A DNA stretch of 64,000 nt from Escherichia coli (GTDB lineage: Bacteria; Pseudomonadota; Gammaproteobacteria; Enterobacterales; Enterobacteriaceae), in the NCBI RefSeq assembly GCF_030013205.1, contig NZ_CP122648.1. The stretch is one strand, 5' to 3'. The notes under the pieces are model-generated. The model ran no database searches, was not told the origin of the DNA, and saw only the letters and a list, made by a program, of their open reading frames with translations. Positions 49,796 to 51,946 of the stretch are shown piece by piece (the stretch's first letter is position 1; each line of letters opens with the position of its first letter). The position numbers were made by a program, and so were the translations under genes.

Positions 49796-49807
49796 TAATA
49801 GTGCACG

Positions 49808-49905
49808 ACTGCCGGATGCGGCGTGAACGCCTTATCCGCCTACATTTCGCCCGTAGGCCGTAGGCATGATAAAACGCGCATAGCGTCGCATCAGGCATCT
49901 GCGCA
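49808..49905. repeat. REP/BIME palindromic units
   Basis: tgccggatgcggcgtgaacgccttatccgcctac and gcgcatagcgtcgcatcaggcatctgcgcac between frmB and yaiL. Confidence 0.7.
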
Positions 49906-49919
49906 CGACTTATCTATGT

Positions 49920-50459
49920 TTACCACATCAAATCATCAGGCACTTTGAAGTCGGCATACGGATCGTCTTCATCCTGCTCTTCGGCGCTGAGCGCGCTGTG
50001 CAACACAATACTGCTGGCATCACGCTGAGCAATTTTATCGGCAACGCTGGCGGGAATAATTGCGTATTCACCTTCGCTATTGTTATCGAGCAACAAGCGG
50101 GCAATCGCCAGACGACCATTAATCAACTGCGCCTGTGTGAGCTTATCGACAAAAATCTTCTTAATCAGATTGCCGTCAGTGAAGTTAAAACCAATATCGC
50201 CATTGGCAATGGTGATTCGGTTCATTTCAATGAGCTGCTTCACCTGAGCTTTATATTCTTTCGCCAACGCCGCTTGTTTTTGTTGCTCGCTAAGCTGTTT
50301 ATCACGCTCAAGCTGAGCCTTTTTATTTTCTTCTACCGCCGCCCGAGCTTCACGCGCCTGAACGCGCGATTTTTTCGCCGTTCTCTCGACCTTCGCCGCT
50401 TTTTTGCTGGTGACTAATCCTGCTTTGAGCAACTGCTCTTGTAAGGTAAGTTTTGCCAT
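49920..50459 (-). CDS. yaiL: DUF2058 family protein YaiL
   Basis: 179 aa from MAKLTLQEQLLKAGLVTSKK, matching E. coli YaiL; the ORF-track start at 50471 is an upstream extension. Confidence 0.85.
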   Translation of the reverse strand: MAKLTLQEQLLKAGLVTSKKAAKVERTAKKSRVQAREARAAVEENKKAQLERDKQLSEQQKQAALAKEYKAQVKQLIEMNRITIANGDIGFNFTDGNLIKKIFVDKLTQAQLINGRLAIARLLLDNNSEGEYAIIPASVADKIAQRDASSIVLHSALSAEEQDEDDPYADFKVPDDLMW

Positions 50460-50560
50460 CTTTGTTTCCAAACCCGCTGAATAATTTTTAGCGAGTATAC
50501 CTGTAAACGCCGTAGGTGTATTGGGGGCAAGTCCCTTTCGCCCCTACTTAATAAGGCGCG

Positions 50561-51771
50561 TCAGGCATCGGCGCACGGCTGCATTCGTGATCTCCGGCTC
50601 ATCAAAATAAACACTGCCAGGCCGGCAACAAGAATACCCGGCGCAGAAGCGGCCATTACGCCAACCGTGCCAGTGCCTAATGCCAGCATTTTCCCGGCCA
50701 GTAACGGACCGCTCATAGCCCCCAGACGCCCTACCGCCACGGCTGTTCCCACACCTGTTGCGCGGATCTGCGAACTGTAAAACAACGGTGCCAGGGCATA
50801 CAAAACGCTTTGCCCACCTGTCGCAAACAACCCCGCGACGAATCCCGCCAGCAACATACCGTTAAATGACGACACCGTTCCCAGCGCCAGCAGCGAAGCT
50901 AACATGCCGCTATAAATCAGTAGCGACATGGTTACTGGACGCAGCTTATCCATCAATGCGCCCAACATTAACGTCCCGCTTGCCGCACCCATTTGCAGTG
51001 CAAACATCACCCCTGCCGCCTGCGATGGCTGGAATCCTTGCTCCACCAAAAGCAGCGGTAGCCAGTTGATCAACATGTAGACCACCAGCAGAGTGAAGAA
51101 ATAACACAACCACAGCAGCAGCGTCGCGGTTGCCGTTTCTGGCGCAAATAACGCACGCAGTGGTGGCGCAGCCTGTTTTTCGCCAGCGAAAACCGCCGAC
51201 TCCGGCAGCCAGCGCATTAATAGCGGCACCAGAATCAACGGCACCACACCACCTACCCAAAACACCGTTTGCCATGCTAAGTTTGCCCCCGCGAAACCCA
51301 GTGTCGCGCCAGCGCCGCGCCAATGGGGACACCGCAATACATCAGGCTCACTGCCGTCCCACGAAAACGTGGCCCCGCGGCTTCAGACGTCAGGGCGATC
51401 AGATTCGGCAACGCCGCCCCCAGCCCGACACCGGTCATCAGTCGCGCAAAGACCAGTGAGGGGAAATCCCAGGCAATCGCCGTTGCCAGTGAGAACAAAC
51501 CAAACAGCGCAACTGAGCTAATTAAAATACGCTTACGACCATAACGGTCCGCCAGCATTCCGCCAACCAGCGCGCCGGGTAGCAAACCGAGTATTCCGGC
51601 GCTGAATATCCAGCCCATTTGCATTTTATCGAGTGCGAAAGCCTGGGCGATGCCACCCGCCGCAATGCCAGCCGCCTGAAGATCCAGTCCTTCCATCAGA
51701 GCGACCAAAAAACAAAGCCCGATGGTCAGCATCAGGTGGGATGAAGATGATGAAGGGGTACGAGTCGACAT
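50561..51771 (-). pseudogene. mhpT: 3-hydroxyphenylpropionate MFS transporter MhpT, apparently frameshifted
   Basis: Two overlapping ORFs (51277..51840 and 50561..51337) jointly cover the 403-aa MhpT sequence; the frame switches at ~51305-51310 (ctg gcg cga cac where an intact frame needs ctg gcg gcg aca ctg), consistent with a 1-nt deletion. Confidence 0.7.
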
Positions 51772-51866
51772 AAGATGAACCTCGTTGCGAGTGCAGGTGA
51801 ATCGCGGCTGATACATTGCCAGCCGCGTAATCAGAACCATTTAATGACTGCCTACGGGCGAAATAT

Positions 51867-51900
51867 AGGCCGGATAAGGCGTTTACGCCGCATCCGGCAG
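51867..51900. repeat. REP element
   Basis: taggccggataaggcgtttacgccgcatccggca between mhpT and mhpE. Confidence 0.65.
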
Positions 51901-51946
51901 TCGTGCTGGGATGGGCATACAAAATGCACGTTCTCGGCAGTCATCA

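Follow-up and report, generated by a model that had tools for sequence, protein, structure and literature searches.

REP elements in the fghA-mhpE interval

The window, i.e., the whole stretch of DNA that was analysed, is 64 kb long and shows 100% identity to E. coli K_EC180. Between its positions 49796 and 51946 the gene order is fghA-yaiL-mhpT-mhpE, with fghA and yaiL in convergent orientation, and BIMEs lie in the fghA-yaiL and mhpE-mhpT spacers. The earlier note on this DNA, which had named the genes rightly, listed three REP sites here; two of them turned out to be genuine REP elements, whereas the third is a half-element fragment only, and its coordinates were ~30 nt off.

The cluster that had been placed at 49808-49905 resolved into a single Y-Z2 pair, that is, one BIME-2 unit, at 49803-49909. 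It starts 7 nt past the fghA stop codon (49793-49795) with the head-side linker GCACGAC (49803-49809, + strand), which precedes a Y-type REP of 34 nt (49810-49843, + strand) that matches the Y consensus at 29 of 29 nt (E 6e-12), after which one G of the CCGGCCTAC tail is missing. There follow the locus-specific S linker ATTTCGCCCGTAGGCC of 16 nt, which joins Y and Z2 tail to tail (49844-49859, + strand), an inverted Z2-type REP of 38 nt (49860-49897, - strand) that reads ATCATGCCTAC and agrees with the Z2 consensus at 34 of 38 nt, and the head-side linker TCTGCGCACGAC (49898-49909, + strand), which closes the unit, with the yaiL stop codon next, at 49920. The 7-mer GCACGAC also ends the left unit (49903-49909), and its reverse complement occurs at 51900-51906. 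This arrangement of Y (+), 16-nt linker and Z2 (-) shows the alternating, inverted Y and Z2 REPs with a short linker that characterize BIME-2. The boundary of the unit is visible in the two-unit left allele of K-12, (Y Z2)x2, and the one-unit allele of the window corresponds to a two-unit allele minus exactly one repeat period inside Z2.

The element noted at 51867-51900 was likewise confirmed, as a single Y REP with its linkers (51850-51906) between mhpE and mhpT. Its S-type linker (51850-51864, - strand), which reads GCCTACGGGCGAAAT on the + strand, is paralogous to 49844-49858 and inverted relative to it. It is followed by the Y-type REP itself (51865-51899, - strand), with one mismatch to the 34-nt consensus (33/34) and no such match in shuffles of the window, and by the head-side linker GTCGTGC (51900-51906, - strand), the reverse complement of GCACGAC. 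This Y REP is the anchor of an array that reaches 9 REPs in other strains; the K-12 allele is Y(Z2 Y)x4.

At ~50520-50560, where a degenerate REP had been suspected, our consensus search detected no REP at E ≤ 0.01, and a full degenerate element was rejected. What exists is a REP-derived piece of 24 nt at 50557-50580 (+ strand), a dead fragment consisting of the distal Z2 arm plus linker that matches 49887-49910 at 21 of 24 nt; it alone is significant, as 1 of 2000 shuffles and none of 441 other window tiles attained its alignment score. Twenty of these nucleotides are coding sequence for the C-terminal end of mhpT and its stop, and the fragment thereby reaches into the gene's final six codons and stop codon (50561-50563, - strand); its folding is not significant (z = -1.56). 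The mhpT gene also carries a real frameshift, specific to the porcine O139:H1/ETEC lineage.

Compared with the Y and Z2 REP consensus sequences as quoted in PMC11208160, the three REPs of the two BIMEs are imperfect palindromes of 30-38 nt that fit the Y/Z1/Z2 consensus, and both BIMEs have the extragenic location of the family at 3' ends or between the genes of an operon; neither applies to the fragment at 50557-50580. The CTAC/GTAG tetranucleotide at the foot of the stem is found at 49840-49843 (CTAC) and 49860-49863 (GTAG), and the right Y REP has the one-base variant ATAG at 51865-51868. As is typical of REPs, hundreds of related copies exist per genome, and probes containing a REP had a median of at least 32 places per genome among the matches listed. 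The matches to the Y and Z2 consensus, together with the extragenic position and the strong hairpins, identify these sequences as REP/BIME elements.

Folding and possible roles of the hairpins

In comparison with shuffled sequences, the left BIME folds with z = -4.05 and -4.47 on its two strands and the mhpE-mhpT spacer with z = -4.83; the minimum free energies range from -52 to -59 kcal/mol and 0 of 200 shuffles were equally stable, as expected for a genuine stem-loop. Y and Z2 pair into a long helix in the fold of the left BIME, and the REP hairpin is present in the - strand transcript of the mhpE-mhpT spacer. None of the seven terminator-like sites of the window lies within the three spacers, the stems are not followed by a U-run, and no promoter-like sites were found in the spacers. 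The absence of such features implies that any effect on transcription would be indirect.

Gene-end location and stable folding would also fit ordinary intrinsic terminators or chance GC-rich hairpins that do not belong to the REP family. This explanation is already refuted, to our judgement almost beyond doubt, by the near-perfect consensus matches over 34-35 nt, which did not occur in shuffles, and the missing U-runs, the spacers free of terminator-like sites and the abundance of related copies in each genome likewise speak against it. A second thought was that the elements are expressed and work as small RNAs like naRNA4 (REP325), instead of being passive 3'-UTR structures. Matches to the Rfam family naRNA4 (RF02564) indeed sit on both Y REPs, at 51868-51916 (43.8 bits, E 1e-5) and 49801-49841 (31.8 bits), but neither reaches the gathering threshold of 59.5 bits, and we therefore rejected a known RNA family as the identity of the elements. 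The scores are far under the threshold and cover the generic REP part of the model only, any Y REP would give the same resemblance, and the spacers are without a promoter-like site, which makes functional small RNAs highly improbable here.

Instead, the hairpins, which would form at the 3' termini of the fghA and yaiL transcripts as well as between mhpE and mhpT, may shield the upstream mRNA from 3' exonucleases, and those between mhpE and mhpT may in addition reduce read-through into mhpT. Liang, Rudd and Deutscher are said to have observed in 2015 that translation of the upstream gene is lowered where a REP follows its stop codon at a distance of ~15 nt or less. In the left Y REP, strong pairing begins some 14 nt past the stop codon of fghA, a distance that would fall in the range for lowered translation of fghA. 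These cellular roles of both BIMEs are suggested by what applies to the REP family rather than by this locus, and the same family level applies to the known binding and cleavage of BIME-2 DNA by gyrase (Espeli and Boccard 1997, cited in PMC3333891).

Array length and insertion sequences across strains

For comparison we used 5,426 complete E. coli genomes from RefSeq, which represent a biased strain collection. Size classes were determined via REP-free flank probes, and their frequencies refer to 58 rows taken at even spacing for each spacer. The fghA-yaiL flanks join in 5292 of 5417 genomes and are split in 125. Among the 58 sampled fghA-yaiL spacers, 30 measured ~124 bp, 27 ~224 bp and one 325 bp. 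The mhpT-mhpE flanks join in 4827 of 4923 genomes, with 31 of the 58 sampled spacers at 175 bp, 9 at 274 bp, 3 at 377 bp, 2 at 476 bp and 13 at 577 bp. The steps of ~100 bp from strain to strain correspond to whole Y-Z2 units, so that the left array holds 1, 2 or 3 units and the right array 1, 3, 5, 7 or 9 REPs. A tandem unit number that differs between strains, here in three and five size classes, is a further feature of BIME-2, and nearly all small-scale variation of the interval is confined to the two BIMEs. Units may be gained and lost by unequal recombination or replication slippage between tandem units or, alternatively, through the REP-associated transposase TnpA_REP, as has been proposed generally for BIME-2 arrays.

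The suggestion that the REP sites serve as targets for insertion sequences was borne out, as both BIMEs have been struck by the REP-specific IS621 and the fghA-yaiL BIME also by IS1397. IS621 was found in the fghA-yaiL BIME of about 125-134 genomes, a few of the 134 probably representing the paralogous mhpT-mhpE site, given the 125 genomes with split flanks; the mhpT-mhpE BIME is occupied in 59. These length classes and insertions are counted by genome rather than by independent gains, losses or IS insertions on a tree, and the IS621 alleles could belong to a few clades. The element sits in Z2 REPs, flanked by ATCAGGC on one side and AC on the other, and each junction carries the CT core (target ATCAGGC|CT|AC); in the IS621-bearing alleles of AH25, PEC199 and STW0522-31 the Z2 REP carries the ATCAGGCCTAC target, with integration at the CT core. 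This agrees with the published natural target ATCAGGCCTAC and with 144 of 173 experimental insertion sites located in REPs (PMC11208160). When we searched for the 11-nt ATCAGGCCTAC with its CT core, tolerating ATCGGGCCTAC, no exact target was present inside 49796-51946, and the window matched only at 18676 and 30035. At the target position the three REPs of the interval read ATCATGCCTAC (the Z2 REP), ATCCGCCTAC and ATCCGGCCTAT; since none of them contains the exact 11-nt target, the allele of the window is a poor target for IS621. IS1397 was present in 2 genomes and, in strain A36, interrupts the fghA-yaiL BIME in the central loop of its second Z2 REP. Targeting of REPs by both IS1397 and IS621 is known (PMC1525189); the window itself has no IS621 at these BIMEs and no IS1397 at all.

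Gene order, deletions and a possible origin of the BIME pair

The earlier note had expected this boundary between the frm and mhp loci to be prone to recombination and to underlie differences in gene content. This interpretation holds in part: complete structural conservation across strains, the outcome that was to count against it, is not what we found, since unit number and IS insertions vary at the REP sites. The rearrangement-prone boundary and the link to gene content do not hold, as the order fghA-yaiL-mhpT-mhpE is kept wherever the genes exist and the gene-level deletions that we found in E. coli have non-REP ends. An mhp-less allele is present in 487 genomes and results from a deletion of ~10.6 kb, the left end of which lies 32 nt outside the REP fragment and the right end inside a GlxA/ovrA gene, where there is no REP. 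Loss of mhp by recombination between two REPs was rejected, as the junctions in SC455, FDAARGOS_536 and O157 SS17 lack REPs and meaningful homology. Strain A30 carries a second, independent deletion, from inside mhpT to inside mhpR, again with non-REP ends, and the ends are likewise non-REP for the loss of the O157-type MBL/GlxA genes beside lacI. In E. whittamii, fghA is truncated, its 3' part having been deleted into the Y REP via a GGATGCrGCG microhomology; this is the sole gene-level change found that ends in a REP, and it belongs to a species other than E. coli.

A role of the REPs as a recombination hot spot that makes strains differ in whether they possess mhp and genes next to it could draw on the concentration of structural variation at the REPs, on the closeness of the common mhp deletion to the REP fragment, on the E. 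whittamii fghA deletion and on REP-REP recombination documented at other loci (PMC1525189). We consider it unlikely, because the 487-genome deletion ends on the right in coding sequence devoid of REPs and on the left outside a fragment that is itself not a foldable REP, because the ends of the MBL/GlxA loss and of the A30 deletion are non-REP as well, and because gene order is otherwise invariant. Inversion of yaiL-mhpT was rejected too: we built the junction predicted for recombination between the two inverted arms, and 0 of the 5,426 genomes cover ≥80% of it. Also very improbable is the idea that yaiL and mhpT form a present or former cassette, bounded by inverted BIME arms and moved or inverted by recombination of the arms or by a REP-associated transposase. 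Inverted arms of ~58 nt (55/58 identity, one indel) do bracket exactly these two genes, across the genome their linker is specific to this pair of sites, and a divergent lineage of Escherichia has kept the pair. However, the inverted arrangement occurs in no genome, yaiL and the left BIME stay behind in the 487 genomes without mhpT, so that the two genes do not travel together, and mhpT belongs to the mhp cluster by function and orientation. Moreover, a simple inversion with one BIME break would split Y from Z2 rather than leave Y plus linker at both ends. Taken together, the interval very probably contains BIME-2 representatives of the E. coli REP/BIME family, two of them living and one a dead fragment, which generate local length and IS polymorphism and do not cause the gene-content differences at this boundary.

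The window contains about 4-5 BIME sites per 64 kb (blastn-short against the REP consensus), and according to a rough estimate the probability that some pair of BIMEs lies ≤2 kb apart by chance is 0.4-0.7. The closeness of the two BIMEs is thus unsurprising, and we dropped it as a signal per se. Both intact elements are inverted copies of one module composed of GCACGAC, the Y REP and ATTTCGCCCGTAGGC. A probe for the linker had a median of 1 place per genome, and the 20-nt degenerate pattern matched Escherichia genomes at this locus only. We propose tentatively, and with more doubt than confidence, that the two BIMEs, instead of having joined the locus independently from a dispersed family, arose as inverted copies by local copying, either through TnpA_REP-mediated transfer of single-stranded BIME DNA or through an inverted duplication. 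This event would be older than the separation of E. coli from E. whittamii and from the cryptic lineages of Escherichia.

Most properties of the locus are those of described systems, and the behaviour of BIME-2, IS621 and IS1397 seen here is already published. As in BIME-2 arrays elsewhere (Gilson, Bachellier, Hofnung; Ton-Hoang et al. 2012, PMC3333891), extragenic, alternating inverted Y and Z2 REPs with a short tail-to-tail linker form tandem whole units of strain-variable number. In such arrays the linkers are constant at a given locus and vary from one locus to the next; in contrast, one linker type occurs in both arrays here, inverted, and both are at their minimum in this strain, with a single Y-Z2 unit on the left and an isolated Y plus linkers on the right. 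The definition of BIME-2, the copy-number variation between strains and recombination by TnpA_REP in vitro are described in PMC3333891. With regard to IS621 (Choi et al. 2003; Durrant et al. 2024, PMC11208160), the Z2 REPs of other strains are occupied at the published site in both BIMEs, whereas the window carries no IS621 at either. The insertion in the Z2 loop of A36 is one of IS1397, a BIME-specific element of the IS3 family (Bachellier 1997; Clement 1999; cited in PMC1525189, PMC3333891), which is rare here. REP325/naRNA4 (RF02564) shares REP-cluster sequence with the locus, as the partial covariance-model matches on both Y REPs illustrate, but with scores that stay below the gathering threshold. 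REPINs of Pseudomonas, reportedly described by Bertels and Rainey in 2011, are said to consist of two inverted REPs pairing into one long hairpin. The locus is similar to them in its Y:Z2 helix and in the evidence that a complete module, not one palindrome by itself, was copied locally; they belong to another REP family, and the copy here would be Y plus linkers rather than a symmetric doublet.

REP/BIME elements have been known since the 1990s, as have their polymorphism in copy number and the use that IS621 and IS1397 make of them as landing sites, and the wider biological weight of the locus is little. In practical terms, the two spacers are VNTR-like markers, one with three length classes and the other with five, their recurrent IS621 sites may confuse assemblies, PCR typing and synteny comparisons around lac, mhp and frm, and loss of the mhp operon should not be ascribed to REPs. 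As IS621 now serves as a programmable recombinase, a list of natural alleles with or without its exact target may have minor use. We found no description of neighbouring BIME arrays that share one inverted linker type in the BIME literature examined, and the apparent paralogy of the two BIMEs, as indicated by a linker unique to this locus in the Escherichia genomes scanned, is one modest new point. If local copying was indeed involved, the locus would preserve a natural trace of BIME propagation that can be dated and would offer a convenient allele pair for measuring the gain and loss of BIMEs.

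REP clusters flanking yaiL and mhpT

Between positions 49600 and 52100 the window shows 100% identity to chromosomal sequence of E. coli K_EC180, which was isolated from swine, and 96-98% identity to most other E. coli. The RefSeq annotation of the K_EC180 record places fghA (frmB) at 48962-49795 on the plus strand and, on the minus strand, yaiL (DUF2058) at 49920-50459, mhpT, flagged as frameshifted, at 50561-51771, and mhpE at 51947-52960; the gene names given in the earlier note are therefore correct. The mhpT lesion, on the minus strand at 51305-51308, is the loss of 1 bp compared with K-12 (GCTGGCGGCGAC to GCTGGCGCGAC) and results in two ORFs, 51277-51840 and 50561-51337. 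The 66-nt sequence across it was found unchanged in only 14 genomes, every one an independent isolate from pigs (O139:H1, ETEC), which rules out a sequencing error and identifies the frameshift as a real lineage marker.

In the fghA-yaiL spacer (the left site), the fghA stop codon is followed by a GCACGAC linker, a Y REP located by consensus search at 49810-49843, a 16-nt linker and, oppositely oriented, a Z2 REP at 49860-49897, directly after which come TCTGCGCACGAC and, 10 nt beyond, the yaiL stop codon. The mhpE-mhpT spacer (the right site) contains a single Y REP on the minus strand at 51865-51899 with 1 mismatch to the 34-nt consensus, and no match of this grade was obtained in dinucleotide shuffles of the window. 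The REP consensus sequences used match those given in Durrant et al. (PMC11208160). Compared with shuffled controls, folding was stronger for the left BIME (z = -4.05 and -4.47 for the two strands) and for the mhpE-mhpT spacer (z = -4.83). Both REP sites of the earlier note are borne out, and the original observation was largely right. A BIME-2 is defined by Y and Z2 units that alternate in orientation and are separated by a short linker (PMC3333891), and the elements described here are a textbook locus of this kind. Elsewhere the window holds two further BIMEs, at 18627-18713 (a Y-Z2 pair) and 30016-30115 (a Z1-Y pair), both of which include the IS621 target ATCAGGCCTAC in its exact form, as well as a partial REP at 20701-20730; given the BIME density across the window, two BIMEs 2 kb apart are unremarkable. 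The predicted fold of the mhpT upstream spacer also contained a 9-bp hairpin unrelated to REP, GCGGCUGGCAAUGUAUCAGCCGC, at 51803-51827 on the minus strand, ~31 nt upstream of the mhpT start codon.

A search of the spacers for terminator and promoter consensus sequences detected none, and Rfam yielded only sub-threshold matches of the elements to the REP-derived naRNA4. Judged from other members of the family, the REP hairpins would make the fghA, yaiL and mhpE messages more stable at their 3′ ends, lower read-through into mhpT and bind gyrase. The left Y REP is predicted to pair strongly from 49810 onwards, ~14 nt past the fghA stop codon; Liang, Rudd and Deutscher are said to have reported in 2015 that a REP at this distance lowers translation of the upstream gene.

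Relatedness of the two BIMEs and the third site

Positions 49803-49858 align with the reverse complement of 51850-51906 with 55/58 identity and one indel, and the likeness extends past the REP itself, as GCACGAC, the Y REP and ATTTCGCCCGTAGGC are common to both BIMEs. BIME-2 linkers are conserved inside one locus and variable across loci (Ton-Hoang et al., PMC3333891). A different linker is present in another BIME-2 of the window, a 54-nt probe with the K-12 linker at its centre gave a median of one match per genome, and a degenerate 20-nt linker pattern, scanned on one genome each of 100,044 species, matched within Escherichia only at the fghA-yaiL/mhpT-mhpE locus, all of which shows that the shared linker is not generic. 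In Escherichia sp. E1V33 both linker sites were matched, inverted and 2.1 kb apart, and in E. whittamii the right array carries the linker also internally, together with a Z2 of the same ATCATGCCTAC variant as in the window. The remaining pattern matches were three unrelated chance ones and a MAG contig labelled Clostridiales bacterium (positions 1-2587), which has 97.9% identity to E. coli mhpT-mhpE and is almost certainly mis-binned or contaminant E. coli. The locus-specific linker and its distribution in Escherichia mark the two BIMEs as paralogues in inverted orientation whose origin predates E. coli. A simple inversion could not yield Y plus linker at both ends, and a local copying event would be a more likely origin of the pair.

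A degenerate REP had also been suspected in the yaiL-mhpT spacer, at ~50520-50560. Consensus search found no REP in this spacer, but a REP-derived piece does exist at 50557-50580, a 24-nt direct repeat with 21/24 nt identical to 49887-49910 (the distal arm of the left Z2 REP plus linker), whose alignment score was equalled by 1/2000 shuffles and 0/441 other window tiles. It is a half element without significant folding (z = -1.56), most of it codes for the final mhpT residues and stop codon, and the spacer length was constant in all mhp-positive loci fetched.

Length classes and insertions among strains

BIME-2 arrays are found as several copies in tandem, whose number at one and the same locus differs among strains (Ton-Hoang et al., PMC3333891). 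The fghA-yaiL spacer has two Y-Z2 units and 223 bp in K-12 and 124 bp in the window. The window's single unit corresponds to unit 1 of a two-unit allele until the Z2 loop and to unit 2 beyond, one repeat period exactly being the difference from that allele. The mhpT-mhpE spacer measures 577 bp with nine REPs in K-12 and 175 bp in the window. As REP-containing probes match at least 40 pieces per record, genomes were surveyed with REP-free probes (300 + 300 nt, flanking coding sequence only). The fghA and yaiL flanks were joined, that is, within 800 bp, in 5292/5417 genomes, and an evenly spaced sample (n = 58) gave spacers of ~124 bp (30), ~224 bp (27) and 325 bp (1). The mhpT and mhpE flanks were joined in 4827/4923 genomes, with sampled spacers of 175 (31), 274 (9), 377 (3), 476 (2) and 577 bp (13), corresponding to 1, 3, 5, 7 and 9 REPs.

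Genomes with split flanks harbour insertion sequences: strains AH25 and PEC199 have IS621 in the left BIME and STW0522-31 has it in the right one, and A36 has IS1397 in the left BIME. Junction probes detected IS621 at fghA-yaiL in up to 134 genomes, in agreement with the 125 split-flank genomes, and at mhpT-mhpE in 59, while IS1397 adjoined yaiL in 2. The IS621 junctions read ...ATCAGGC-CT / IS / CT-AC..., which corresponds to this element's natural target, ATCAGGCCTAC, and its CT core (PMC11208160); the exact target is absent from all three REPs of this interval in the window, where the Z2 reads ATCATGCCTAC. IS1397 interrupts the central loop of a Z2 REP, fitting the published description of this BIME-specific element (PMC1525189). 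The proposals that REPs here serve as IS targets and that the sites are locally unstable thus both hold.

Gene-level deletions at the locus

The earlier note had further tied the REPs to gene-content variation between strains. In 487 of 5,426 genomes (9%), yaiL is followed by a 99-bp remnant, the 3′ part of a GlxA-family (ovrA, OI-19) regulator gene, and then by the adjoining lacI. In O157:H7, mhpR is followed by an MBL-fold hydrolase gene, the full GlxA/ovrA gene and lacI; the mhp-less allele therefore derives from such an arrangement by one shared ~10.6-kb deletion that removed mhpRABCDFET. The window and K-12 lack the MBL and GlxA genes, with the lacI promoter directly after the end of mhpR (window 59240-59260, ...gacaccatc/gaatggcgc...). 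In the annotation of the mhp-less FDAARGOS_536, yaiL (2532-3071 of the fetched locus) is a pseudogene containing an internal stop.

The left end of the deletion lies at window 50524/50525, 32 nt outside the REP fragment at 50557-50580, and the right end lies inside the GlxA coding sequence, without REP or useful homology; the positions concerned in the fetched loci are 6925-7061 (L004) and 12350-14135 (L005). Strain A30 carries a distinct, independent deletion with one end inside mhpT and the other inside mhpR (4100-4190 of its locus), which left two partial pseudogenes beside lacI. The inversion junction predicted from the inverted arms was found in 0/5,426 genomes. The only REP-ended gene-level deletion noted is that of E. 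whittamii (one genome, Sa2BVA5), in which fghA has lost its 3′ ~650 bp, with the end inside the Y REP (8995-9004 of the fetched locus); it joins GGGGATGCaGCG in fghA (window 49149-49160) to the Y REP's GGATGCGGCG (window 49813-49823) at a GGATGCrGCG microhomology. With non-REP ends of the mhp-less deletion and no inversion, it is therefore not the gene-content differences but the small length and IS polymorphism of this locus that the REPs explain.
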